This document shows, piece by piece, positions 51,864 through 64,000 of a stretch of 64,000 nt of DNA. The notes beneath the pieces are model-generated. The model had not been told where the DNA came from, searched no databases, and was given only the letters and a program-made list of their open reading frames with translations. Both the position numbers and the translations under genes were made by a program. The stretch is taken from NCBI RefSeq assembly GCF_036507355.1, contig NZ_AP027877.1, one strand, 5' to 3'. This DNA is from Escherichia coli. Lineage in GTDB: Bacteria; Pseudomonadota; Gammaproteobacteria; Enterobacterales; Enterobacteriaceae. The stretch's first letter is position 1. The number at the start of each line of letters is the position of its first letter.

Positions 51864-52766
51864 TTACCATCTTCCTGACGCGCCGCCACCGCCGGATGAA
51901 CCGCCGCCACCGCTGAAATTGTCATTGTCGAAAGAGGATGAAGAGGAAGAAGACGATGACGAATGCCAGGAGGCCGAGTTGCTTCTTTCGTAGCGTGACG
52001 GTCGGTTTGCACTACGCATTGAATCACGCACCTTTCTGCCGAAAGGTGTGAAAGCGATAGCTACGACCAGGAATGGAGTGGCGAAACATAATAATGTGGC
52101 AAGAATTCCCCAGCTCCCGCTATATCCAGCGATGGGAAGTACAAAGGCCAGTATTATGGCAGCAAAGCAAATCACTCCCAGCGTTTTGATATATCCTCTG
52201 GCAGAAATAAACGTCAGTACTATCGCCCAGACTAACAGAGCCCACCAACCGCTAAAGGGTAAAGGATGATCGGGCGATGTATTATTGACTAAATCATTTC
52301 CTGATAGTCGGGTTTCAATATCACCAATACCTTGTTGCAAGCCGACAGCAAGGTCGCCCTTTTTAAACGCTGGAATAATACTGTTGCGTATAATTTGCCC
52401 GGACTGCGCATCCGTCAGAATACCCTCAAGTCCGTAGCCAATTTCAATATGTACTGTATGATCTTGCTAGGCAACTACCAGTAAAATACCGTCATCAAGA
52501 TTCTTATGACCGGGCTGCCAACGCTCGAATACCCGCGTTGCGTACTGCTCGATGGTTTCGTCGCCTGTTGTATCAACCACTAACACGACCAACTGTGCGT
52601 GTTTTTTTTGTGTCAGGGCTTTAATCTGGTTGGTCAGGGTGTTTACTTCGCTGTTTGTTAATGTGCCGGTTAAGTCATTCACATACTTGGGTGATTCAGG
52701 TACTGGAATTTGTGTGGCAAACACAGATGAACAGAAGAAAGCCGTAAGGAAGATAAAATTTCGCAT
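51864..52766 (-). pseudogene. ygcG: TPM-domain (YgcG-like) protein interrupted by an in-frame TAG at 52467-52469
   Basis: N-terminal ORF (signal peptide MRNFIFLTAFFCSSVFA plus start of TPM domain) and C-terminal ORF (TM segments plus Gly/Ser-rich tail) are in the same frame, separated only by the amber codon; sequence reads ...LLVVA-TAG-QDHTVHIEIGYGLEG... Confidence 0.75.
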
Positions 52767-52779
52767 AGAACTTCCCCGC

Positions 52780-53400
52780 TTAATGAGCATTAGCATTCTG
52801 GCTAAAATCTATTGTTGGGGCTTTACTTACTGCGGCGACATCATCCGGCAAATAATTTTTCTTTGGTGTGTAATCCATGACCTTTGCGGTTAATACAGCG
52901 GGGAATTTGCGGATAGTGACATTATATTGTTCAATGGCTTTAATATATCTTCCTCGCGCAACGGCAATTCTATTCTCACTTCCTTCGAGCTGTACCATTA
53001 AGTTTTGATAGAGCTCTTGAGCCTTTAACTCAGGGTAACGCTCACTAATTATCGTTAACTGACCGAGAGTGCGAGTCACCTGCGCCTGGGCCTGTTGCCA
53101 GGCTTGTAATTTTTGTGCATCTCCGGGAGCTTGCTGAAGATCGCTGCTGGCGCGATTAGCCTGGCTACGAGCCAATGTTACGGCTTCCAAAACGTCTTTT
53201 TCATGGTTGGAATAACCTTTAATACTGGCGACAAGATTAGGAATAAGATCGGCGCGACGTTGATATTGATTTAATACCTCAGACCAGGAGGCGTTAACCT
53301 GCTCATCATAGGTTTGAATATCGTTATATCCACAGCCTGATAAATTGAAAATAAATATAATTAAGATGAATATCCTGAGCATGTTTAAATCCTTTTTCAT
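52780..53400 (-). CDS. LemA-family protein (probable lipoprotein)
   Basis: 206-aa LemA-family ORF with N-terminal signal and lipobox LSGC; stop lies 13 nt upstream of the TPM gene start. Confidence 0.8.
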   Translation of the reverse strand: MKKDLNMLRIFILIIFIFNLSGCGYNDIQTYDEQVNASWSEVLNQYQRRADLIPNLVASIKGYSNHEKDVLEAVTLARSQANRASSDLQQAPGDAQKLQAWQQAQAQVTRTLGQLTIISERYPELKAQELYQNLMVQLEGSENRIAVARGRYIKAIEQYNVTIRKFPAVLTAKVMDYTPKKNYLPDDVAAVSKAPTIDFSQNANAH

Positions 53401-53554
53401 TAATTCCTTAAAACATAATACGCCGCTTCATTTTATTCTTTATGATCTAATGCACTTTTTGCCTTAAACCTGCCTGTAACAGAATGTTAATAAGACATGA
53501 TTGTTGCGGCAGGATCTGCAATAATTAACAATTATCCACTTCACAGAGAATGCT

Positions 53555-54226
53555 ATGCAGTACCCGATTAACGAGATGTTCCAGACCCTGCAAGGTGAGG
53601 GTTACTTTACCGGCGTCCCCGCCATTTTTATTCGTTTACAGGGATGCCCGGTTGGCTGTGCCTGGTGCGACACCAAACACACCTGGGAAAAGCTTGAGGA
53701 TCGGGAAGTCTCCCTTTTCAGCATTCTGGCGAAGACCAAAGAGAGTGATAAGTGGGGGGCGGCGAGCAGTGAAGACTTGTTGGCTGTCATTAGTCGCCAG
53801 GGATACACCGCGCGGCATGTGGTGATTACGGGTGGTGAGCCTTGCATTCATGATTTGCTACCACTGACTGATCTGCTCGAAAAGAACGGTTTTAGCTGCC
53901 AGATCGAGACCAGTGGTACTCATGAGGTACGCTGCACACCGAATACCTGGGTTACCGTATCGCCAAAGCTGAACATGCGCGGCGGCTATGAAGTGTTGTC
54001 ACAGGCACTGGAGCGAGCCAACGAAATCAAGCATCCAGTGGGGCGCGTACGCGATATTGAAGCACTGGATGAACTATTGGCAACGCTGACCGATGATAAA
54101 CCGCGAGTCATTGCACTGCAGCCGATTAGCCAAAAGGATGATGCCACACGATTGTGCATTGAAACCTGCATTGCGCGTAATTGGCGTTTGTCGATGCAAA
54201 CACATAAATATCTAAATATTGCCTGA
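53555..54226 (+). CDS. queE: 7-carboxy-7-deazaguanine synthase (radical SAM)
   Basis: 223-aa ORF with cysteine cluster CPVGCAWCDTKHTW. Confidence 0.9.
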   Translation: MQYPINEMFQTLQGEGYFTGVPAIFIRLQGCPVGCAWCDTKHTWEKLEDREVSLFSILAKTKESDKWGAASSEDLLAVISRQGYTARHVVITGGEPCIHDLLPLTDLLEKNGFSCQIETSGTHEVRCTPNTWVTVSPKLNMRGGYEVLSQALERANEIKHPVGRVRDIEALDELLATLTDDKPRVIALQPISQKDDATRLCIETCIARNWRLSMQTHKYLNIA

Positions 54227-54419
54227 TTAAACATTTATAAGCGTTATAAATGGGTGGAACCTGTAAAGACTTCTACTCATTTATATTCTTTGTCGCCTCT
54301 GAAAACTCCTCCATTTTACCCATCCAGGGCTAATCATTAGCATTCTCTACAAATTCTGTGGTGTTAATTTTTTGTTGGAGTGAAAATTATTGCGGTAAAG
54401 TTTGGTAGATTTTAGTTTG

Positions 54420-54565
54420 TATAGAATTATTTTAAATATTTGCCTTTTTAATCAATGGGTTAAGTGCTCTTTAACATAATGGATGTGTTGTTTGTGTGAT
54501 ACTGTAAAGTTGGTAGATTGTGACTGGCTTAAAAAATCATTAATTAATAATAGGTTATGTTTAGA
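54420..54565 (+). promoter_or_regulatory. AT-rich CRISPR leader of array 1
   Basis: AT-rich tract ending ...GGTTATGTTTAGA immediately 5' of the first repeat. Confidence 0.6.
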
Positions 54566-54777
54566 GAGTTCCCCGCGCCAGCGGGGATAAACCGGAGAGA
54601 GTCCAGTATCAATCCCGCGATCCGCAGAGTTCCCCGCGCCAGCGGGGATAAACCGCCGTTGCGGATCTTGAGTAGTGCCACGTCACCGAGTTCCCCGCGC
54701 CAGCGGGGATAAACCGGGTACAAAAGAGGCCCCATTCTGGCAGGGCTCGAGTTCCCCGCGCCAGCGGGGATAAACCA
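54566..54777 (+). CRISPR. Type I-E CRISPR array: 4 repeats of 29 bp, 3 spacers of 32 bp
   Basis: Repeats GAGTTCCCCGCGCCAGCGGGGATAAACCG at 54566, 54627, 54688 and 54749 (last ends in A); spacers GAGAGAGTCCAGTATCAATCCCGCGATCCGCA, CCGTTGCGGATCTTGAGTAGTGCCACGTCACC, GGTACAAAAGAGGCCCCATTCTGGCAGGGCTC. Confidence 0.95.
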
Positions 54778-55241
54778 CCATATAACCCGTTATCTCTTTC
54801 TCAAGTTTTTATATTAGCAGTACTTGTAATAAGCAACATATCCACGTAACACCTCATGTTCAAAATAGTTCCCCATGCCAGATAAGTTCACAATTATCGA
54901 TACAAAAAATTAAATTTAATCAAAGTGTTATTTGTATAATTCTTAAGCCGTTAAGAAATTTTAATCTATTATTTTTTTAATATTAATTAATGCCTGTTAA
55001 TTTTTTCTTTAGTATAACAGTGTATTTTTTAAGCTTGTTATTCATTGATTAAGTAATAAATCTGGAAATTTGTCTTTGTTTTGAGGCTAATGAGTGGTTT
55101 TACATAACCGCCTCTATACGCTGTTGATGAATAGTTCTTATGAATAAAGATATCCAGTTCATACTTTAAGTGAAAATTGATAAAGTGCGATTCGTATTGT
55201 CTTTTATTCTAAAGACATCGAGTGTAGTTAATATTCCTTGT

Positions 55242-55368
55242 AAAAACAGGGATAAACCGAACTAGTTAAAGTTTTTATTATGTTCCCTGCATCAGCGGGG
55301 ATAAACCGGACTTGTTATCATTTTTTAAGTTGTCGAACTTATGTTCCCCGCGCCAGCGGGGATAACCA
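55242..55368 (+). CRISPR. Degenerate type I-E CRISPR array remnant: 2 decayed repeats plus a partial repeat, 1 full-length spacer
   Basis: Partial repeat ...CAGGGATAAACCG ending 55259; ATGTTCCCTGCATCAGCGGGGATAAACCG (55280-55308); 32-bp spacer GACTTGTTATCATTTTTTAAGTTGTCGAACTT; ATGTTCCCCGCGCCAGCGGGGATAACCA (55341-55368). Confidence 0.8.
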
Positions 55369-55414
55369 TTCAGGTATGTTCAGGCCGGGCAGTTTCCCGC
55401 CCGGTTTTCCTCAC

Positions 55415-56893
55415 TTACGCATTCGACCAGCTCTGGATCGAATCCGCATTTCCCAATTCCCCATGCATCACTTCATACGATTTTTTCAGAATCACATCAG
55501 TATGTTTGGTTAGGTCTTTGAAAATGCCTTTATTCATCGCGTCGTAGCGTTTGGCATTGCTCTCAATCGGTATAAAGATATCTTTCACGCGAACCATTTT
55601 ATCGACAGCCGTTGCGTAATCCGGGTATAGCCCCAGACCTACCGCGGTATTAATCGCTGCCCCCAGACTTGCACAACCGTTAATGGCGTTACGTCGTGCC
55701 GGAAGGTTGAACACGTCGGCAAAAATCTGCATAAACAGATCGCTGTTCGAACCGCCGCCAGTAATGATCACATGCTTCGCAAAGTGATTCATTTCATTAC
55801 ACATATTGTCGTAATTGTTCTTCAGCGTCAGCGCCACGCTTTCCAGTATCGAACGATATATCCATGCGTAATCCATGCTGGAATCAAAGCCGATCATAAT
55901 CCCGCGTTTGTACGGTTCCCACGGATTGGTCAGCCAGTCCAGCACCGTCATCAGCCCATTACAGCCAGGTGGCACACTAGAGGCTTTCTTGTTGAGTAAA
56001 TCTTCCGGTGAAAGATCCTGCGCCCTGGCATCCTGAATTAACGACTCGCCCAACATGTCGCGCAGCCAGCTCACCGTCCACATGCCTTTGCGAATACCGT
56101 AACCTTCATACAGCAATGTTTGCGGAATAGAAGACATAATCGGCCAGTACGCCACCGGATCTTTCGGCAAGGCTTTGCCGTTCATCATCAATGCGATGTA
56201 AGTGCCAAGAGAAATTACCGCAGTTTCATCATCCAGTAATCCGGCCCCCAGAGCTTCTACCGGTTTATCACTGGTGGTACAAACAACCGGCAGTCCTGCC
56301 GGGAAATGTGTCGCCAGTGCGGCTTGTGGTGTGATATGTCCGAGGACGGTGCCAGGCATTTGCACATCAAACAGCATATGACGAGGGATATTAAACTTCT
56401 CCATTACCGCAGCATCTTCGCTCCATGCCCAGCTCTTATAATCCACCGGCCACTGACCAAAATAGTTGGCGATATTGTCTTTAAACTCGCCGGTTAAGCG
56501 ATGCGTCAGATAACCCGAAAAAGAGGTGACATATGCCACGTCAGGATTCGTAGGTTCGTAAGGGCGTGTAACGCGTGCATCCTGCCAGCTAATCAATGGC
56601 GCAGCTGGCGTGCCATCGGCTTTCAATAACGCACGGCAGCAACGGATGGATCCCAGACCAATACCGACAATATCTTCTTTATTCCCGGCAAACTGACTCA
56701 TCAAATCGTGACCGGCAAAACATAATGATGCCCATAAATCGTCGTCAGGATGTTCTGCAGTATCGGCATCTGGCGTGTGCATCGGCTGCAATAAACCTTT
56801 GCCTTCGCAAACCACATTACCTTCCAGATCGTACATCACCACTTTTGTGCTCTGACTTCCGCCATCAATCCCTATGATATATTTTTTCGACAT
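55415..56893 (-). CDS. ygcE: FGGY-family sugar kinase
   Basis: 492-aa FGGY-family ORF (GIDGGSQSTK). Confidence 0.85.
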   Translation of the reverse strand: MSKKYIIGIDGGSQSTKVVMYDLEGNVVCEGKGLLQPMHTPDADTAEHPDDDLWASLCFAGHDLMSQFAGNKEDIVGIGLGSIRCCRALLKADGTPAAPLISWQDARVTRPYEPTNPDVAYVTSFSGYLTHRLTGEFKDNIANYFGQWPVDYKSWAWSEDAAVMEKFNIPRHMLFDVQMPGTVLGHITPQAALATHFPAGLPVVCTTSDKPVEALGAGLLDDETAVISLGTYIALMMNGKALPKDPVAYWPIMSSIPQTLLYEGYGIRKGMWTVSWLRDMLGESLIQDARAQDLSPEDLLNKKASSVPPGCNGLMTVLDWLTNPWEPYKRGIMIGFDSSMDYAWIYRSILESVALTLKNNYDNMCNEMNHFAKHVIITGGGSNSDLFMQIFADVFNLPARRNAINGCASLGAAINTAVGLGLYPDYATAVDKMVRVKDIFIPIESNAKRYDAMNKGIFKDLTKHTDVILKKSYEVMHGELGNADSIQSWSNA

Positions 56894-56919
56894 GATTTTT
56901 CTCCTGTAATTTTCCTGGC

Positions 56920-58197
56920 TTACTTGCTGCTAGCTATTGCGGGGGCGCTATCAGCAGTACGAATTTTTTGGAACAGCAAAAAGGTAAAGACGATCACCAT
57001 GCCGAGTGCCGCCATGCCCATCAGCCACATGTTGCGGTAGGCTTCTGCTGCGGGCAGGGTGTCCTGCCAGTGGCCGATAATCGGGTAAACGAAGACATCC
57101 GGCAGGAATCCAATCACCGAACAAATACCTACCGTGGTGCCCATAATGTAAGACGGTGTTCTCGCTTCGCCAGGGCAGGCCCAGTACAGCCCGCGTGAGG
57201 CGTAACAGGTGAATCCCAGCAGTAAAATCAGGCCAATCCCCATCGCGACCGATTGCGGGTTAGAGTTCGTGACGAGCAGGGCAGTTAACGCCAGCAGGCC
57301 GAGTACGGAAAGGATTTGGATCACGCGGGTAGGGGATTTCACTTTGCTGTAGGTGGTGATTATGCCGCCAAGTGGGCCGCACAGCGCGCGGAATATTTTG
57401 TTGATCACAATCCCCATGTAGCTCGCCGCCACCAGCGACATGCCGTACATTTCGGTCAGATAGTTGGTGGAGTAACTCAGAATGGCGTAGATGGTGAAGA
57501 CACCAAAAATCACCATGCTGCAATACCAGGTGGTGCTGATGCGCAAAACGGCCAGGATGTCGCTAAGCTGGAATGACTGTTTTTCTTCGTTATTGGCACT
57601 ACGCAGGTTATTGTTATCGCTAACAAAAAACCAGCACAGAAGCCCCAACAAGATGTAAACCACACTGTAGATGATAATGACCGTTTTCAGGCTGGCGCTG
57701 TCATCCGGTGCAAAGCGAGAAAAGACCCACATGGTAAACACCGCCAGCGACATTACACCGACGCCGCGCAGCCCTTCCATCCAGCCCATAATTTTCCCTT
57801 GCTCGCTATGATCGCCAAGCAACGATGCGGCTTTAATCGACACCGACCACAGCATTAAAATCGTTGTTATCGCAAAGGCGACCTGAATACAGAGCATTAC
57901 CCACAGCGGTGGATACGTTGCCATTAACAGACCCAGTAATCCGGTAATGATCATCGCGGAAGTAATCATTTTGCGGTGTGAAAATTTATCGGCAATAACG
58001 CCGCTGGGGGCATAAAGAATAATAGCCGCAATACCAAAGGTACTCATTATTAAACCTATCTCGGTATTGCTGAATCCCATAAATTTCGCCATGGGAATTT
58101 GATAAATATAACGTAAATAAGCCAGGTCGAAACTAACGCCGCCGCTAAAACTAATTATCGCGAGGGTTATCCAACGGCGATATGAGTTGTGTTGCAT
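56920..58197 (-). CDS. yqcE: MFS transporter
   Basis: 425-aa 12-TM ORF upstream of ygcE on the same strand. Confidence 0.85.
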   Translation of the reverse strand: MQHNSYRRWITLAIISFSGGVSFDLAYLRYIYQIPMAKFMGFSNTEIGLIMSTFGIAAIILYAPSGVIADKFSHRKMITSAMIITGLLGLLMATYPPLWVMLCIQVAFAITTILMLWSVSIKAASLLGDHSEQGKIMGWMEGLRGVGVMSLAVFTMWVFSRFAPDDSASLKTVIIIYSVVYILLGLLCWFFVSDNNNLRSANNEEKQSFQLSDILAVLRISTTWYCSMVIFGVFTIYAILSYSTNYLTEMYGMSLVAASYMGIVINKIFRALCGPLGGIITTYSKVKSPTRVIQILSVLGLLALTALLVTNSNPQSVAMGIGLILLLGFTCYASRGLYWACPGEARTPSYIMGTTVGICSVIGFLPDVFVYPIIGHWQDTLPAAEAYRNMWLMGMAALGMVIVFTFLLFQKIRTADSAPAIASSK

Positions 58198-58375
58198 ATC
58201 GTATTCCCATTTGTAATAGACAAAAAAAAGAGAAAAGTAAGCCGCCCTTTCAGGTGGATTACTTTTCTCAGGTCTCTAGTAATTGAAATAATAAATAACA
58301 TGGAAAGCAGAGGTGTTGTGTGAGAGTAATCACGCTTCTGCTTTTTAAAACTATTTGATAATGCGAATATCACAC

Positions 58376-58391
58376 TGTGATTACGATCACA
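58376..58391. promoter_or_regulatory. Perfect CRP core site TGTGA-N6-TCACA
   Basis: TGTGAttacgaTCACA in the divergent yqcE / ygcU' intergenic region, about 57 bp upstream of the ygcU' ATG. Confidence 0.5.
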
Positions 58392-58440
58392 TTAGCAGTT
58401 ATGTCCTTATGCTAAAAATTATCTCCAGTTACCAGAGATA

Positions 58441-59571
58441 ATGAGAAAGGTAACTGAGAATATGCAGGCGACGGCGCAATGTGGCGTTCCGCTGGAGGTG
58501 CTGGAAAACGCGTTGCGTGAAAAAGGTTACACCACGGGGCATTCTCCGCAGTCAAAGCCGCTGGCGCAGATGGGCGGCCTGGTAGCAACCCGCAGTATCG
58601 GGCAGTTCTCCACACTCTACGGCGCAATCGAAGATATGGTCGTTGGTCTGGAAGCAGTATTGGCTGATGGCACCGTGACACGTATTAAAAACGTGCCACG
58701 CCGCGCGGCTGGCCCGGACATTCGTCACATCATCATCGGCAACGAAGGTGCATTGTGCTATATCACTGAAGTAACAGTGAAAATCTTTAAATTCACCCCG
58801 GAAAACAACCTCTTCTACGGCTATATCCTGGAAGACATGAAAACCGGCTTCAACATCCTGCGTGAAATCATGGTGGAAGGGTATCGTCCGTCGATCGCTC
58901 GTTTGTATGACGCTGAAGATGGCACCCAACACTTCACGCATTTTGCCGACGGAAAATGCGTGCTGATCTTTATGGCTGAAGGTAACCCTCGCATTGCGAA
59001 GGCGACGGGCGAAGGGATTGCGGAAATCGTTGCCCGCTACCCGCAATGCCAACGCGTGGACAGCAAGCTGATCGAAACCTGGTTTAACAACCTGAACTGG
59101 GGACCGGATAAAGTGGCTGCCGAACGTGTGCAGATCCTCAAAACCGGCAACATGGGCTTTACTACCGAAGTGTCCGGCTGCTGGAGCTGCATCCACGAAA
59201 TCTACGAAAGCGTTATTAACCGTATTCGTACCGAGTTCCCGCACGCCGACGACATCACTATGCTGGGCGGTCACTCCTCTCATAGCTATCAGAACGGCAC
59301 CAACATGTACTTCGTCTACGACTACAACGTTGTCAACTGTAAGCCGGAAGAGGAAATCGACAAGTACCACAATCCGCTCAACAAAATCATTTGCGAAGAA
59401 ACCATTCGCCTCGGTGGTTCGATGGTGCACCACCACGGTATCGGTAAACATCGCGTTCACTGGAGCAAGCTGGAACACGGCAGCGCGTGGGCGTTGCTGG
59501 AAGGGCTGAAAAAGCAATTCGATCCTAACGGCATTATGAATACGGGTACTATCTATCCGATTGAAAAATAA
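58441..59571 (+). CDS. ygcU: FAD-linked oxidoreductase (alkyl-DHAP synthase / GlcD-like), apparently N-terminally truncated
   Basis: 376-aa ORF beginning within the FAD-binding domain (MGGLVATRSIGQFSTLYGAIEDMV); in-frame stop upstream at 58393-58395; family members are normally about 480 aa. Confidence 0.7.
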   Translation: MRKVTENMQATAQCGVPLEVLENALREKGYTTGHSPQSKPLAQMGGLVATRSIGQFSTLYGAIEDMVVGLEAVLADGTVTRIKNVPRRAAGPDIRHIIIGNEGALCYITEVTVKIFKFTPENNLFYGYILEDMKTGFNILREIMVEGYRPSIARLYDAEDGTQHFTHFADGKCVLIFMAEGNPRIAKATGEGIAEIVARYPQCQRVDSKLIETWFNNLNWGPDKVAAERVQILKTGNMGFTTEVSGCWSCIHEIYESVINRIRTEFPHADDITMLGGHSSHSYQNGTNMYFVYDYNVVNCKPEEEIDKYHNPLNKIICEETIRLGGSMVHHHGIGKHRVHWSKLEHGSAWALLEGLKKQFDPNGIMNTGTIYPIEK

Positions 59572-59664
59572 TGTGTCAGGCAGCGTTCCGCGATGATGGG
59601 GCGTTGCCTTTTCGGCTTCTCAGGCGAGAAGCCGTTCTTATTACCGGACAATGAAGGGGTAAAG

Positions 59665-61002
59665 ATGAACACTTCACCGGTGCGAATGGATGATTTACCA
59701 CTTAACCGTTTTCACTGTCGAATTGCTGCGCTCACTTTCGGCGCACACCTGACCGACGGTTATGTTCTCGGCGTCATTGGTTACGCCATTATTCAACTTA
59801 CGCCCGCCATGCAACTGACGCCGTTTATGGCGGGAATGATCGGCGGCTCGGCGCTCCTTGGTTTGTTTCTTGGCAGCCTGGTTCTTGGGTGGATCTCCGA
59901 CCATATTGGTCGGCAAAAAATCTTCACCTTCAGCTTTTTGCTGATTACGCTCGCTTCGTTCCTGCAATTTTTTGCCACCACGCCAGAGCATCTTATTGGA
60001 CTGCGCATTTTGATCGGCATTGGTCTGGGAGGCGATTACTCAGTAGGTCACACCTTGCTGGCTGAATTTTCCCCGCGCCGCCATCGCGGTGTTTTGCTGG
60101 GCGCATTCAGCGTGGTGTGGACCGTAGGCTATGTGCTGGCAAGTATTGCCGGACATCACTTTATTTCCGAAAACCCGGAGGCCTGGCGCTGGCTGCTGGC
60201 ATCGGCAGCTCTGCCCGCGTTGTTGATTACGTTATTACGCTGGGGAACGCCAGAATCGCCACGCTGGCTACTGCGCCAGGGGCGTTTTGCAGAAGCTCAC
60301 GCTATCGTGCATCGCTATTTTGGTCCCCATGTTTTACTGGGCGATGAAGTGGCAACGGCGACCCATAAACACATCAAAACCTTGTTCTCTTCACGCTACT
60401 GGCGGCGCACGGCGTTTAACAGCGTCTTCTTTGTCTGCCTCGTAATCCCATGGTTTGTGATTTATACCTGGCTGCCAACTATCGCCCAGACTATTGGTCT
60501 GGAAGATGCGCTGACTGCCAGCCTGATGCTTAATGCGTTGTTAATTGTGGGCGCGCTGCTGGGATTAGTTCTGACGCACCTGCTGGCACATCGCAAATTT
60601 TTGCTGGGAAGTTTTTTGCTGCTGGCGGCAACGCTGGTAGTAATGGCCTGTTTGCCTTCCGGCAGTTCATTAACGCTGCTGCTTTTTGTTCTCTTCAGCA
60701 CCACCATTTCGGCAGTCAGTAATCTGGTGGGCATTTTGCCTGCGGAAAGTTTTCCTACTGACATTCGCTCGCTGGGCGTCGGTTTTGCCATCGCCATGAG
60801 TCGGTTGGGGGCGGCGGTAAGTACTGGCCTGCTGCCGTGGGTGCTGGCGCAGTGGGGAATGCAAGTCACCTTATTGCTCCTGGCGGCAGTGTTGTTGGTT
60901 GGTTTTGTTGTAACCTGGCTATGGGCACCAGAAACCAAAGCACTCCCGCTGGTGGCGGCGGGAAATGTAGGAGGTGCGAATGAACATTCTGTTAGCGTTT
61001 AA
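59665..61002 (+). CDS. ygcS: MFS sugar-porter-family transporter
   Basis: 445-aa product from ATG 59665 (AGGGG RBS); sugar-porter motifs GRQK and PETK. Confidence 0.85.
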   Translation: MNTSPVRMDDLPLNRFHCRIAALTFGAHLTDGYVLGVIGYAIIQLTPAMQLTPFMAGMIGGSALLGLFLGSLVLGWISDHIGRQKIFTFSFLLITLASFLQFFATTPEHLIGLRILIGIGLGGDYSVGHTLLAEFSPRRHRGVLLGAFSVVWTVGYVLASIAGHHFISENPEAWRWLLASAALPALLITLLRWGTPESPRWLLRQGRFAEAHAIVHRYFGPHVLLGDEVATATHKHIKTLFSSRYWRRTAFNSVFFVCLVIPWFVIYTWLPTIAQTIGLEDALTASLMLNALLIVGALLGLVLTHLLAHRKFLLGSFLLLAATLVVMACLPSGSSLTLLLFVLFSTTISAVSNLVGILPAESFPTDIRSLGVGFAIAMSRLGAAVSTGLLPWVLAQWGMQVTLLLLAAVLLVGFVVTWLWAPETKALPLVAAGNVGGANEHSVSV

Positions 61003-61759
61003 AGCCGAACCGGATGCCGGAATGCTGGCGGAAAAAGAGTGGCAGGCGGCGGCTCAGGGTAATAGCGGACCGGATATTTCGCTACTGCGAAGTTTACTCG
61101 GTGCTGATGAACAGGCTGCCGCCGCGCTGCTGTTGGCGCAGAGAAAAAACGGTACGTCGATGTCTTTAACCGCGTTGAGCATGGGGGATGAACGGGCGTT
61201 GCACTGGCTGCGCTATCTCATGGCTCTTGGGTTTGAGGAAGCTGTATTGCTGGAGACGGCGGCAGATCTGCGCTTTGCGCCGGAATTTGTCGCTCGCCAT
61301 ATTGCCGAATGGCAGCGTCAGAATCCGCTGGATCTGATAATTACCGGCTGCCAAAGCAGCGAAGGGCAGAATGGGCAAACGCCATTTTTGCTGGCGGAAA
61401 TGCTGGGCTGGCCTTGCTTCACCCAGGTGGAGCGTTTCACTCTCGACGCGCCGTTTATCACCCTCGAACAGCGTACTGAACATGGGCTGCGCTGTTGCCG
61501 GGTTCGCTTGCCTGCGGTGATTGCCGTGCGTCAGTGTGGTGAAGTGGCCTTGCCAGTACCGGGAATGCGCCAGCGAATGGCTGCGGGGAAAGCAGCAATT
61601 ATCCGTAAAACTGTTGCTGTCGAATTGCCAGCGATGCAGTGTCTGCAACTGGCAAGAGCAGAGCAACGACGCGGAGCGACGTTGATTGATGGGCAAACGG
61701 TAGCAGAAAAAGCGCAAAAGCTATGGCAGGACTATTTACGCCAAAGGATGCAGCCATGA
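60980..61759 (+). CDS. ygcR: Electron transfer flavoprotein beta-subunit-like protein (FixA-like)
   Basis: 259-aa ORF from ATG 60980 (AGGAGGTG RBS); overlaps ygcS 3' end and ygcQ start. Confidence 0.8.
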   Translation: MNILLAFKAEPDAGMLAEKEWQAAAQGNSGPDISLLRSLLGADEQAAAALLLAQRKNGTSMSLTALSMGDERALHWLRYLMALGFEEAVLLETAADLRFAPEFVARHIAEWQRQNPLDLIITGCQSSEGQNGQTPFLLAEMLGWPCFTQVERFTLDAPFITLEQRTEHGLRCCRVRLPAVIAVRQCGEVALPVPGMRQRMAAGKAAIIRKTVAVELPAMQCLQLARAEQRRGATLIDGQTVAEKAQKLWQDYLRQRMQP

Positions 61760-62616
61760 ATATCGCAATTGTGACAATAAATCAGGAGAATGCCGCATTA
61801 GCGGGCTGGCTGGCGGCGCAGGATGTCAGCGGTTGTACCCTGGCGCACTGGCAAATAGAACCACAGCCCGTAGTGGTGGAACAGGTGCTGGATGCGCTGG
61901 TGGAACAGTGGCAGCGAACGCCTGCGAACGTTGTTCTCTTTCCGCCGGGAACGTTTGGCGATGAACTGTCGACCCGGCTGGCCTGGCGTTTACATGGTGC
62001 AAGCATCTGCCAGGTGACTTCGTTAGAGATTCCAATCGTAAGCGTGCGCAAATCCCACTGGGGAAATGCGCTAACGGCGACGCTGCAAACAGAAAAACGC
62101 CCGCTATGTCTTTCCCTGGCGCGCCAGGCGGGAGCAGATAAAAATGCCACGTTGCCCTCTGGTATGCAGCAACTGAACATAGTCCCAGGTGCGCTTCCGG
62201 ACTGGCTGGTTAGCATAGAGAACCTGAAAAATGTTACTCGCGACCCATTAGCTGAGGCCAGACGGGTGCTGGTGGTGGGGCAGGGCGGAGAGGCAGATAA
62301 CCAGGAAATTGCTATGCTGGCAGAAAAGCTGGGAGCCGAAGTAGGCTACAGTCGGGCACGAGTGATGAACGGTGGCGTTGATGCCGAAAAAGTGATTGGT
62401 ATTTCCGGACATCTGCTGGCACCTGAGGTGTGTATTGTTGTTGGCGCATCCGGTGCGGCAGCGTTAATGGCGGGCGTAAGCAATAGCAAGTTTGTGGTGG
62501 CGATTAATCATGACGCCAGCGCAGCGGTATTTTCACAGGCAGATGTTGGCGTGGTTGATGACTGGAAAGTGGTGCTGGAGGCACTGGTGACAACCATTCA
62601 CGCAGAATGCCAATAA
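61756..62616 (+). CDS. ygcQ: Electron transfer flavoprotein alpha-subunit-like protein (FixB-like)
   Basis: 286-aa ORF; ATG overlaps ygcR stop (ATGA). Confidence 0.8.
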   Translation: MNIAIVTINQENAALAGWLAAQDVSGCTLAHWQIEPQPVVVEQVLDALVEQWQRTPANVVLFPPGTFGDELSTRLAWRLHGASICQVTSLEIPIVSVRKSHWGNALTATLQTEKRPLCLSLARQAGADKNATLPSGMQQLNIVPGALPDWLVSIENLKNVTRDPLAEARRVLVVGQGGEADNQEIAMLAEKLGAEVGYSRARVMNGGVDAEKVIGISGHLLAPEVCIVVGASGAAALMAGVSNSKFVVAINHDASAAVFSQADVGVVDDWKVVLEALVTTIHAECQ

Positions 62617-62619
62617 CGT

Positions 62620-62760
62620 GCTGCCGGATGATCCTGCCTACGGTTCTGGCCTGGGGACTTGTAGGCCTGATAAGACGCGTCAAGCGTCGCATCAGGCGCT
62701 GAATGTCGGATGTGGCGTGCGGCCTACAAATCAAACCAAATTCAATTGGTTACGATTATC
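62620..62760. repeat. BIME: cluster of REP-like palindromes
   Basis: GCCGGATGATCCTGCCTAC, GTAGGCCTGATAAGACGCGTCAAGCGTCGCATCAGGCG, GGATGTGGCGTGCGGCCTAC. Confidence 0.6.
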
Positions 62761-62763
62761 CCG

Positions 62764-63339
62764 TCAAAGCAATTTTTTCGCTAATGTCCAGACTCCGGTA
62801 TTCGTGGTGGAAAGCGCCACGACACCCGCGTTAATCGCATTACGCGCATCTTCTTCATCGCATACCAGCCCGCCAGCAATCAGCGGTTGGCGGATTTTTT
62901 CCGTCACCCAGCCCAGCACTTTGGGCATGCAGCCTGGCAGGATCTCAATACAATCCGGATTCGATTGCGCAACTTGCTTATCAATGTTGTGAAACGAAAT
63001 CGAATCAACAATAAACAGGCGATGAATACAGAAAAAACCTTCCGCTCTTGCCGCTTTTAGCATCGATGCTTTGGTGCTGATAATTCCATCCGCCTCGGTC
63101 ACCAGTTTCAAAAACTGAATCACGACTTCTTTATTTGACGCGCCTTCCAGCAAATCGACATGAATAAAAGCATATTTCCCGGCGTTCTTAATCTTTTTAA
63201 CGATTTGACTAATGGTGCAGATATTGCCGTACAACACGGAAATAAATTGGCATTCAGAATCGATTGCCAGTTGCAGGCTGGCATTATCTTTAACGGCAGC
63301 AATCACCGGATTCTGGCGGAGCAGGTGTAAGAGGGGCAT
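62764..63339 (-). CDS. ygcP: GlpP-family (glycerol-3-phosphate-responsive antiterminator-like) protein
   Basis: 191-aa ORF. Confidence 0.75.
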   Translation of the reverse strand: MPLLHLLRQNPVIAAVKDNASLQLAIDSECQFISVLYGNICTISQIVKKIKNAGKYAFIHVDLLEGASNKEVVIQFLKLVTEADGIISTKASMLKAARAEGFFCIHRLFIVDSISFHNIDKQVAQSNPDCIEILPGCMPKVLGWVTEKIRQPLIAGGLVCDEEDARNAINAGVVALSTTNTGVWTLAKKLL

Positions 63340-63355
63340 AAATTATCCTTATTAT

Positions 63356-63616
63356 TTATCCAAAGCGGTAGGTGATGCCGAATCCGGAAGGTGGATAGCG
63401 CCACTGTTGTAGTGTGGATTCGTCGCACAGCAAACGGCAGGTGCCACACTCCAGGCAACTGCGATAGTCAATACGTAAGTCACCTTCTGGTGTGAGCGAA
63501 AAAAGACCTGCCGGACAGGCGTTAATCAACCGTTCTGCCGTCTGGCGCTCAACGGAGTCAGCCGGAACAATGTGCGGCGCATCAGCAACGCGCCAGAGAT
63601 TACGGGCTACAGACAT
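63356..63616 (-). CDS. ygcO: Ferredoxin-like protein (FixX-like)
   Basis: 86-aa product from ATG (rc 63614-63616) with cysteine motif CLECGTC. Confidence 0.75.
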   Translation of the reverse strand: MSVARNLWRVADAPHIVPADSVERQTAERLINACPAGLFSLTPEGDLRIDYRSCLECGTCRLLCDESTLQQWRYPPSGFGITYRFG

Positions 63617-64000
63617 CGCAGACTCCTGATAACATCGCCCGCCAGATGCCACAGGCCGTGACGACGTAAATGGCGCCAGAATAACTGGCGCAGCGGTGGA
63701 ACAGGTTTATCACCCTGATCCCATAAATCGCGGGAAATATCCTGCATTAACGCAGGCCACGCCCGATACCAGCCAGGGCGTTGCAAAAGCGCCGGAACAT
63801 GCTGATAACGCTGTAGAACATCCCACAGCAGGCTGCGCTCGACGTTGTGATGATAAAGCGGAAACAGATTTTGCGGCTCACAGTGCTGGCAGGCGCTTAT
63901 CAGCGTTTGTGCCGCCGCCTGTGCGCCAGTCAGCGCCATATCCATGCCGCGCACGGAGATTCCGGTATTGACGCAACTGCGTAACGCATCGCCCACCAGC
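63607..64000 (-). CDS. ygcN: FAD-dependent oxidoreductase (FixC / ETF-ubiquinone-oxidoreductase-like), C-terminal part only; 5' end beyond window
   Basis: Minus-strand reading frame open to the window edge; stop TAG at 63607-63609 overlaps the ygcO start. Confidence 0.7.
   Translation of the reverse strand, partial: LVGDALRSCVNTGISVRGMDMALTGAQAAAQTLISACQHCEPQNLFPLYHHNVERSLLWDVLQRYQHVPALLQRPGWYRAWPALMQDISRDLWDQGDKPVPPLRQLFWRHLRRHGLWHLAGDVIRSLRCL

Follow-up and report, generated by a model that had tools for sequence, protein, structure and literature searches.

The stretch of DNA analysed here (the window) comprises 64,000 nt of the Escherichia coli contig NZ_AP027877.1 (assembly GCF_036507355.1), and coordinates are window positions unless another locus is named. 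Towards its end the window holds the E. coli ygcNOP / ygcQRSU(W) / yqcE-ygcE cluster, which is already known and annotated. The explanation that we consider reasonably probable for this locus is that of a damaged ygc cluster, in which an enzymatic core built around YgcU, a flavoenzyme resembling alkyl-dihydroxyacetonephosphate synthase (ADPS), would act on a quaternary-ammonium diol, and in which YgcP, a protein of the GlpP family, would control transcription through leader RNAs. Full-text literature searches with the gene names, the b-numbers and the enzyme and transporter combinations returned no assignment of a substrate or pathway, in agreement with the sequence-only reading of this DNA, an earlier note that had described the cluster as functionally unassigned. 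A 2026 paper terms YgcU only an "FAD-binding oxidoreductase" (FAD, flavin adenine dinucleotide) and reports that a ygcU deletion in enterohaemorrhagic E. coli (EHEC) has no D-serine phenotype. The ygc and yqc genes belong to those conserved genes of E. coli that are still without a function, and the analysis narrows the question to a leader switch, the chemistry of a flavoenzyme and a class of substrates.

At the junction 58455|58456 the window carries a clean deletion of 1,253 bp. In a blastn comparison with an annotated intact E. coli locus (L001), window position 58455 abuts both L001 6747 and L001 8001. The deletion begins inside the 5' arm of the ygcW leader terminator and removes part of that terminator, the whole of ygcW, which encodes a short-chain dehydrogenase/reductase (SDR), and the first 338 nt (about 113-115 codons) of ygcU. 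The junction is spanned in none of the 5,426 complete RefSeq E. coli genomes. Given that five other assemblies (L002-L006) show the identical arrangement, and that the exact 369-residue truncated protein has been deposited as E. coli BED21166.1/HCP3730035.1, the deletion is not an assembly artefact; it is real and specific to a lineage. A homology-mediated origin was considered and discarded, as the search for repeats at the deletion ends gave at most 1 nt of microhomology. A Shigella origin of the DNA, to which the deletion and a best identity of only 98.4% seemed to point, was likewise dismissed, because the exact truncated protein is an E. coli deposit and relA-rlmD is 99.5% identical to that of O145:H28 strains.

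The truncated gene, ygcU', encodes 369 residues from the ATG at 58462, or 376 from the in-frame ATG at 58441, compared with the 484 residues of full-length YgcU. Its product covers only positions 60-138 of the 139 positions of the FAD_binding_4 profile, a domain that is intact in other E. coli, and is missing the invariant T81-T92 loop, which aligns with the GGGTS FAD loop of ADPS. The catalytic residues R262, Y398 and H438-440 are still encoded, and the truncated protein is probably non-functional. The ATG at 58441 was rejected both as the real start and as the start of a leader peptide, given that it is part of the former ygcW leader joined in frame by the deletion, and that other assemblies call the start at 58462. 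In intact E. coli its equivalent is in frame with ygcW, 25 codons 5' of the annotated start.

Relative to the K-12 cluster ygcNOPQRSUW-yqcE-ygcE (b2766-b2776), with which it shares the genes, their order and orientation, 98.4% DNA identity and the yqcE/ygcW CRP site, three parts are missing from the window: the terminator of the ygcW leader, ygcW itself and ~115 codons at the 5' end of ygcU. The other genes are intact, and the enzymatic core is expected to be dead here because the deletion took ygcW and the 5' end of ygcU. The sequence-only reading had spoken of a complete pathway, which does not apply to a strain where ygcW is gone and YgcU has lost its N-terminal FAD-binding segment. Because the ygcW leader terminator was also lost, the CRP-dependent promoter should read constitutively into ygcU' and ygcSRQ in the window, without attenuation. 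The strain is, in effect, a natural ygcW-ygcU null with a terminator-less leader.

The loss of ygcW and of part of ygcU in this lineage could also be one step in the disappearance of a cluster that is a silent and decaying remnant across E. coli, under no selection. The literature searched, which reports neither a phenotype nor a substrate, fits this explanation, as do the ~6% of complete E. coli genomes that are without most of the region. However, 5,090 of the 5,426 complete genomes (~94%) retain 80% or more of the region, with an identity of 95-99%, and the open reading frames (ORFs) of the window other than ygcU' are uninterrupted at full length, with ygcN running off the window end. The leaders, the CRP site and the proteins are furthermore conserved across Enterobacterales genera, with compensatory changes in the RNA, and YgcU is 64-73% identical across Escherichia, Photobacterium, Desulfobacula, Sporomusa, Halobacillus and Saccharopolyspora. 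A decaying remnant is, for these reasons, very unlikely.

Leader RNAs and the GlpP-like protein YgcP

Two copies of a leader RNA flank the CRP site in E. coli, one before ygcW and a second on the opposite strand before yqcE. The yqcE copy is intact in the window, where an antiterminator helix (AUUACU/AGUAAU) around the loop AGAGACCUGAGAAA is followed by an intrinsic terminator and then a U8 run, the end of which is 20 nt 5' of the yqcE start. The ygcW copy has kept the antiterminator strand and the conserved loop, while the 3' arm of the terminator and the U-run were deleted. A scan of the 64 kb with the covariance model R1 gave no copy beyond the yqcE leader and this half-leader, which the model matches at 58416-58453 on the plus strand. 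In its intact form (L001 6714-6785) the ygcW leader has a 19-bp stem followed by U9 (z = -6.4), 25 nt before the start codon, at a place where no gene ends. A CRP site identical to that of the window is bound in vivo in enterotoxigenic E. coli (ETEC) H10407 (PMC4287617) and in vitro, in K-12, with a Kd of 1.7 nM (PMC12871828), and the site has also been predicted by PhyloScan.

The comparison across genomes was made with 80 loci fetched around YgcU homologues in several phyla. The motif follows the consensus rUUACy-AGAG-N(3-5)-GAGAAArGUAAy, then a terminator and then a U-run, and is found 5' of ygcW in Enterobacterales, Photobacterium, Sporomusa, Halobacillus, Clostridia and Saccharopolyspora. 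A hidden Markov model (HMM) search gave 111 full-length copies, 109 of which lie in sense at a median distance of 30 nt 5' of their target genes, namely ygcW (55 copies), genes for YqcE-type MFS transporters (38), genes for BCCT transporters (9) and ygcU (7).

Covariation was evaluated in an alignment of 104 sequences that omits a ~95-nt long-loop variant. The antiterminator helix (columns 13-18 with 39-44) is 98.1% paired and shows compensatory changes in five of its six pairs, with pair frequencies such as GC 65 / AU 35 and UA 77 / CG 20; none of 500 shuffles was as good, and the slid controls were 15-63% paired. For the terminator the paired fraction is 88.6%, and 11 of its 17 pairs show compensatory changes. 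The fact that the two helices share nucleotides, and that column 39 covaries with both of its alternative partners, including terminator column 74, indicates that the antiterminator and the terminator are conserved, mutually exclusive structures. The nucleotides of the loop are invariant across phyla (G20, G22, G28, A29, G30 and G35 in alignment A2). With E-values up to 1 allowed, Rfam 15 has no family that matches either of the leaders, whether in intact E. coli or in the window, and the motif is new in the sense that it is in no RNA-family library or paper searched.

Two further occurrences of the motif were recorded. The long-loop variant, which has an extra insertion atop the terminator stem, precedes an operon of the order U-R-Q-U2 in Clostridia, with leaders upstream of ygcU (L062, L065, L067, L070 and L089; U2 is a second oxidase described below). 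In a Bacillota metagenome-assembled genome (MAG) the motif also heads a separate operon (L077 13971-14030, minus strand) that encodes an MttB-family methyltransferase, a PanB-like protein, an Opu-type ABC transporter and a proline-racemase-family protein.

YgcP likely acts on these leaders as an antiterminator of the GlpP type, with CRP giving catabolite control. YgcP aligns with the whole of PF04309 (G3P_antiterm; profile positions 1-173/173) and, over its full length, with Listeria GlpP (3KTS, residues 11-184, E 8.5e-28). Among the loci flanked by 6 kb or more on both sides, the motif and YgcP occur together in 48, YgcP occurs alone in two and neither is present in three, while the motif is never found alone. 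YgcP is often divergently transcribed or placed upstream. In Desulfopila the enzymes are kept and a LysR regulator replaces both YgcP and the motif, which indicates that YgcP is not needed for catalysis; other Desulfobacterota also keep the enzymes without YgcP and the motif. According to the annotation, the genes of the E. coli cluster include no DNA-binding regulator. The GlpP-like protein had been listed earlier as a mere component of the pathway, and the co-occurrence with the motif, together with the covariation in the leaders, indicates instead that it is the regulator of the pathway.

The arrangement can be compared with that of GlpP and the glpD, glpFK and glpTQ transcripts in Bacillus subtilis. 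Both systems have a PF04309 protein, and in both a short helix, closed around a GAGA-rich loop, overlaps with the 5' arm of an intrinsic terminator. The phosphorylated compound that likely serves as inducer is in each case the product of an FGGY kinase, and to this is added catabolite control, by CRP here and by CcpA there. The B. subtilis glpD 5' untranslated region (UTR) is a validated GlpP target, the sequence of which is available (PMC9604022, Table S4). In this leader a GGUC/GACC helix surrounds the loop UGAGAUGAGGAGA, and the arm of the terminator starts at the second GAGA. The differences are that the ygc system has a proteobacterial host, that the regulated genes are not glp genes, that a model of its motif gives no match in the glpD leader, and that its motif is absent from Rfam. 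Plain glycerol-3-phosphate is unlikely to be the ligand of YgcP. If confirmed, YgcP would be, judging from the papers and libraries searched, the first antiterminator of the GlpP type with a demonstrated function in a proteobacterium.

The main rival to antitermination by YgcP is that the leader works as a protein-independent metabolite riboswitch, with YgcP being a TIM-barrel enzyme that acts on a phosphorylated intermediate of the pathway. The invariant loop nucleotides would suit such a switch, and the pairing of a terminator with an antiterminator is classic for riboswitches. Furthermore, the GlpP fold forms a barrel that binds phosphate (3KTS, 1VKF), and ygcP is co-operonic with ygcNO in E. 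coli. Nonetheless, the putative aptamer would consist merely of a 6-bp helix and a ~14-nt loop, and its layout matches that of the protein-dependent glpD leader of B. subtilis. The absence of loci with the motif only, the regulator-like placement of YgcP, often divergent or upstream, and the Desulfobacterota that have the enzymes without YgcP and the motif, with LysR in Desulfopila, also argue against it. This makes a riboswitch quite unlikely, and regulation by YgcP is the explanation that is retained.

The conserved core and the flavoenzyme YgcU

The recurring core of the 80 loci consists of the SDR YgcW, the flavoenzyme YgcU, the FGGY kinase YgcE and the GlpP-like YgcP, which are found together across Enterobacterales, Vibrionaceae, Desulfobacterota, Firmicutes and Actinomycetes. 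Genes for an electron transfer flavoprotein (ETF) lie 3' of ygcU in most loci, often with overlapping stop and start codons. Of the 54 loci with at least 5 kb of sequence downstream of ygcU, 14 have no ETF gene within 10 kb of it; Erwinia, Pantoea, some Serratia, Halobacillus and Saccharopolyspora are among these ETF-less loci. FixCX-like genes are confined to Enterobacterales. One of the loci, from a Planctomycetota MAG (L011, JADFMM010000147.1), encodes a YgcU that is 99-100% identical to the E. coli protein, and this contig is probably an E. coli contamination of the bin.

Among solved structures the best homologue of YgcU is ADPS (E 3e-40), the next being glycolate oxidase (E 5e-26), and the score of YgcU against the GlcD family TIGR00387 is 143 bits for a cut-off of 568. 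The catalytic positions of ADPS are marked by the mutant chains R419H (4BC7) and Y578F (4BCA), and R419, Y578 and H615-617 of ADPS align with R262, Y398 and H438-440 of YgcU. These residues are unchanged in 14 diverse YgcU homologues (alignment A1), and YgcU has VHHHG where 2-hydroxyacid dehydrogenases have (G/S)EHG. According to Razeto (2007) and Nenci (2012), these residues of ADPS reportedly enolise an ester of dihydroxyacetone phosphate (DHAP), create an adduct between flavin N5 and C1 and bring about the exchange of the leaving group. The kinase and the SDR of the cluster presumably mirror the alkylglycerol kinase and the alkyl-DHAP reductase of ether-lipid metabolism.

YgcU shares with ADPS/AGPS (PDB 4BBY, 2UUU) the VAO-type FAD domain, the cap and the catalytic Arg/Tyr/His-His-His. 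It is shorter (484 residues, versus 584-658 in ADPS) and is without the N-terminal extension, so that the alignment begins at ADPS residue 138-215. Unlike ADPS, it is soluble and bacterial, is found in a catabolic context with betaine-type transporters, and is often followed by ETF genes, whereas ADPS has no need of an external electron acceptor. From the residues that it shares with ADPS, we infer that YgcU would carry out ADPS-type chemistry on a 1-substituted DHAP.

The resemblance to ADPS may instead reflect ancestry, with YgcU being an ordinary ETF-dependent dehydrogenase that acts on a secondary alcohol of a phosphorylated polyol or on a D-2-hydroxy acid, comparable to GlpD/EryB or to LctD/D2HGDH. 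YgcU does belong to the superfamily of GlcD, LctD, D-LDH and D2HGDH, the ETF genes that follow it often have overlapping stop and start codons, and in Enterobacterales it is the sole candidate for an ETF partner in the cluster. What sets it apart from such a dehydrogenase is the lack of the (G/S)EHG motif and the presence of the invariant His-His-His loop, Tyr and Arg of ADPS, an enzyme whose E-value is better than that of any other solved homologue by 14 orders of magnitude. The occurrence of YgcU without a nearby ETF in the 14 loci can be added. An ordinary dehydrogenase is possible, though we hold it to be the less probable alternative to ADPS-type chemistry. The sequence-only reading had an oxidase passing electrons to a dedicated ETF and on to quinone. 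With the ADPS catalytic residues in YgcU this becomes only one of the readings, and the dedicated route is further weakened by the ETF-less loci and by the restriction of FixCX-like genes to one order.

A second FAD oxidase, here called U2, is encoded in many loci of Firmicutes and Desulfobacterota and in Photobacterium; it has the (G/S)EHG motif, and its best match is LctD. U2 was located in Photobacterium at L009 13187-16591 and also in L062, L063, L065, L070, L086 and L089. It is often accompanied by a second ETF pair, the alpha subunit of which carries an N-terminal ferredoxin domain in Photobacterium. From these sequence features, U2 and the second ETF look like an electron-confurcating module of the LctBCD type; the correspondence with the LctBCD lactate dehydrogenase-ETF complex is that U2, present in other phyla, is LctD-like and is paired with an ETF alpha subunit that has a ferredoxin domain.

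YgcR, YgcQ, YgcN and YgcO are FixA-, FixB-, FixC- and FixX-like, respectively, and can be compared with FixABCX and with YdiQRST of E. coli. All four stay under the equivalog cut-offs: the scores are 34.5 bits for a cut-off of 219 (FixA), 63 for 549 (FixB), 363 for 610 (FixC) and 81.9 for 166 (FixX). By these scores, the ETF- and Fix-like proteins of the cluster are paralogues, not equivalogs, of FixABCX, and the FixCX-like genes accompany the core only in Enterobacterales.

Transporters, substrate class and proposed pathway

The score of YgcS against the MFS sugar porter family TIGR00879 is 144 bits, which is under the cut-off of 237.8 bits. Among solved structures it is closest to OCTN2, OCT1, OCT2 and SV2 (E about 1e-22 to 1e-19), with XylE at 4e-10. 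YgcS thus resembles, in its sequence, SLC22/NiaP carriers rather than typical sugar porters, and the description of YgcS as an MFS sugar porter in the sequence-only reading is not supported, given that organic-cation and carnitine carriers are far closer to it than XylE. Of the E. coli homologues of the niacin transporter NiaP, YgcS is the closest, and overexpressing it increases the production of nicotinamide mononucleotide (NMN) (PMC8601175). In other phyla the core travels with BCCT transporters, with OpuC-type ABC transporters and MttB-family methyltransferases, or with OpuA-type ABC transporters.

Given that four unrelated families of betaine and organic-cation transporters accompany the core, the genomic context points to a quaternary-ammonium or zwitterionic compound (choline- or betaine-like) with a phosphorylatable diol as the substrate, and not to a plain sugar. 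The earlier designation "sugar or polyol" appears too simple, with a carrier that is SLC22-like in E. coli and with BCCT, OpuA/OpuC-type transporters and MttB accompanying the core elsewhere. As a matter of speculation, deacylated betaine-lipid head groups and glycerophosphocholine-like molecules can be named as candidate compounds. If this class of substrates is right, it bears on how microbes turn over choline and betaine lipids, and possibly on the precursors of trimethylamine in the gut.

The same genes could also be read as a complete route for the catabolism of a neutral sugar or a sugar alcohol, with an MFS sugar porter, an FAD oxidase, an ETF and an ETF:quinone oxidoreductase of the FixCX type. 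The gene families agree with such a pathway, an FGGY kinase and a KduD-like SDR are typical of polyol and ketose routes, YgcU of Enterobacterales always comes with ETF and FixCX and without a second oxidase, and the overlaps of stop and start codons are present. However, the pathway is incomplete here, with ygcW deleted and ygcU truncated, and YgcS falls under the sugar-porter cut-off and is SLC22/NiaP-like. Betaine-type transporters accompany the core in other phyla, the residues of YgcU are those of ADPS and not those of an oxidase or a 2-hydroxyacid dehydrogenase, and an ETF is missing within 10 kb in 14 of 54 loci. We regard a sugar or polyol pathway as unlikely.

For a quaternary-ammonium diol, the pathway would run as follows. 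A small organic cation or zwitterion with a glycerol-like diol would be imported by YgcS or YqcE in enterobacteria and by transporters of the BCCT or Opu type elsewhere. Its conversion to a 1-substituted DHAP would be the task of the FGGY kinase YgcE and the SDR YgcW, and YgcU, a short soluble homologue of ADPS, would then act on this intermediate at C1. In enterobacteria, any electrons released would pass to the FixAB-like ETF YgcRQ and from there to the FixCX-like YgcNO. For the regulation, CRP would activate the two divergent promoters, and each transcript would start with a leader of ~70 nt forming an intrinsic terminator. YgcP, probably loaded with a phosphorylated intermediate, would then stabilise the alternative helix, its binding and its ligand both being inferred. 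This helix would sequester the 5' arm of the terminator and allow transcription to read through.

A more far-reaching proposal, which we put forward as rather doubtful, is that the W-E-U core constitutes an unrecognised catabolic route, shared by several phyla, in which a quaternary-ammonium glyceryl compound gives up its glycerol backbone by the ether-lipid steps taken in reverse, under a new class of antiterminator RNA of the GlpP family. The kinase would act first and the SDR second, after which the ADPS-like flavoenzyme would break the C1-X bond of the substituted DHAP, and the new class of RNA would sense the phosphorylated intermediate. Deacylated betaine-lipid head groups, glycerophosphocholine-like molecules and (2,3-dihydroxypropyl)trimethylammonium are candidates for such a route. 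If true, the route in gut Enterobacterales could supply choline, betaine or trimethylamine precursors in a way not recognised so far.

Several observations weigh against the overall explanation of an ADPS-like core under the control of YgcP. The reaction of ADPS involves no net redox change, an awkward fit with a dedicated ETF. The LctD-like U2 usually accompanies the ETF genes in loci outside Enterobacterales, and U2, not YgcU, may be the real partner of the ETF in those organisms. The role of the ETF and of FixCX is uncertain, given that ADPS chemistry is redox-neutral and that U2 may be the ETF partner elsewhere. The class of the substrate rests mainly on loci from outside the enterobacteria, E. 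coli itself having MFS carriers. On the side of regulation, a search with nhmmer for the ygc motif in the 5' UTR of B. subtilis glpD gave no match, so that the likeness between the two leaders is architectural only, and the promoter hexamers are loose predictions.

Gene content and surroundings of the cluster

The genes were called from the listing of ORFs, from Pfam scans and from the comparison with the annotated intact E. coli locus (L001). Over 5,546 nt, the identity to annotated E. coli ygc loci is 98.4%, and gene order and strands agree. The gene identities, the order and the orientation given by the sequence-only reading are borne out by the ORFs and the Pfam families. The FGGY kinase gene ygcE and the second MFS gene yqcE do adjoin the cluster, both lying just outside the interval 58441-64000 that the reading had given. 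The overlapping stop and start codons that it had noted are also present, with 23 nt shared by ygcS and ygcR, an ATGA at ygcR/ygcQ and 10 nt shared by ygcN and ygcO. The positions of all features are collected in Table 1.

Table 1. Genes, leader RNAs and CRP site of the ygc cluster in the window
Feature	Position	Strand	Basis
ygcE, FGGY-family kinase, 492 aa, intact	55415..56893	-	Pfam FGGY_N and FGGY_C; annotation
yqcE, MFS_1 transporter, 425 aa, intact, in operon with ygcE	56920..58197	-	Pfam MFS_1; annotation
yqcE-ygcE leader RNA, intact	58217..58295	-	covariance model R1 81.8 bits, E 6.6e-15, full length; nhmmer E 6e-10
CRP site TGTGATTACGATCACA, perfect, shared by the divergent yqcE and ygcW promoters	58376..58391	.	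sequence
ygcW leader remnant, 5' half only	58416..58455	+	R1 15.9 bits, 50 central model positions missing; nhmmer model positions 3-38
ygcU', 5'-truncated gene of ADPS-like FAD enzyme, 369 aa	58462..59571	+	Pfam FAD_binding_4, partial
ygcS, MFS transporter, 469 aa, intact	59593..61002	+	Pfam Sugar_tr
ygcR, ETF beta/FixA-like, 259 aa	60980..61759	+	Pfam ETF; annotation
ygcQ, ETF alpha/FixB-like, 286 aa	61756..62616	+	Pfam ETF_alpha and ETF
ygcP, GlpP family, 191 aa, intact	62764..63339	-	PF04309 E 1.4e-62, full profile
ygcO, FixX-like ferredoxin, 86 aa	63356..63616	-	NCBIfam FixX 81.9 bits, cut-off 166; Pfam Fer4 weak
ygcN, FixC-like flavoprotein, C-terminal 129 codons only (window end)	63607..64000	-	ORF list

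The full ygcN of the intact locus L001 encodes 423 residues and scores 382 bits against the FixC-type model PRK10015, for a cut-off of 466. For YgcE, the nearest solved structure is the autoinducer-2 (AI-2) kinase LsrK. The gap between the convergent ygcQ and ygcP holds a palindrome of the repetitive extragenic palindromic (REP) type at 62664-62737, where a match to naRNA4 stays below threshold (34 bits, with a gathering score of 59.5 bits).

On the other side of the cluster, a short CRISPR array of type I-E style is placed between queE and ygcE (54565-54777 and 55230-55369). It has four repeats of 29/30 nt (GAGTTCCCCGCGCCAGCGGGGATAAACCG) that are 61 nt apart, and three degenerate repeats beside ygcE. 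Tandem Repeats Finder gave none of these repeats, which were detected by another repeat search, and the intact reference annotates a bigger CRISPR array at the same queE-ygcE site. The identity of the window to one reference genome changes along this region, from 92.6% in the queE flank to 95.8% in the part from the CRISPR array through ygcE to yqcE, and to 98.4% from ygcU to ygcN (52075-58455 versus 58455-64000). This uneven identity around the CRISPR locus suggests a mosaic produced by recombination.

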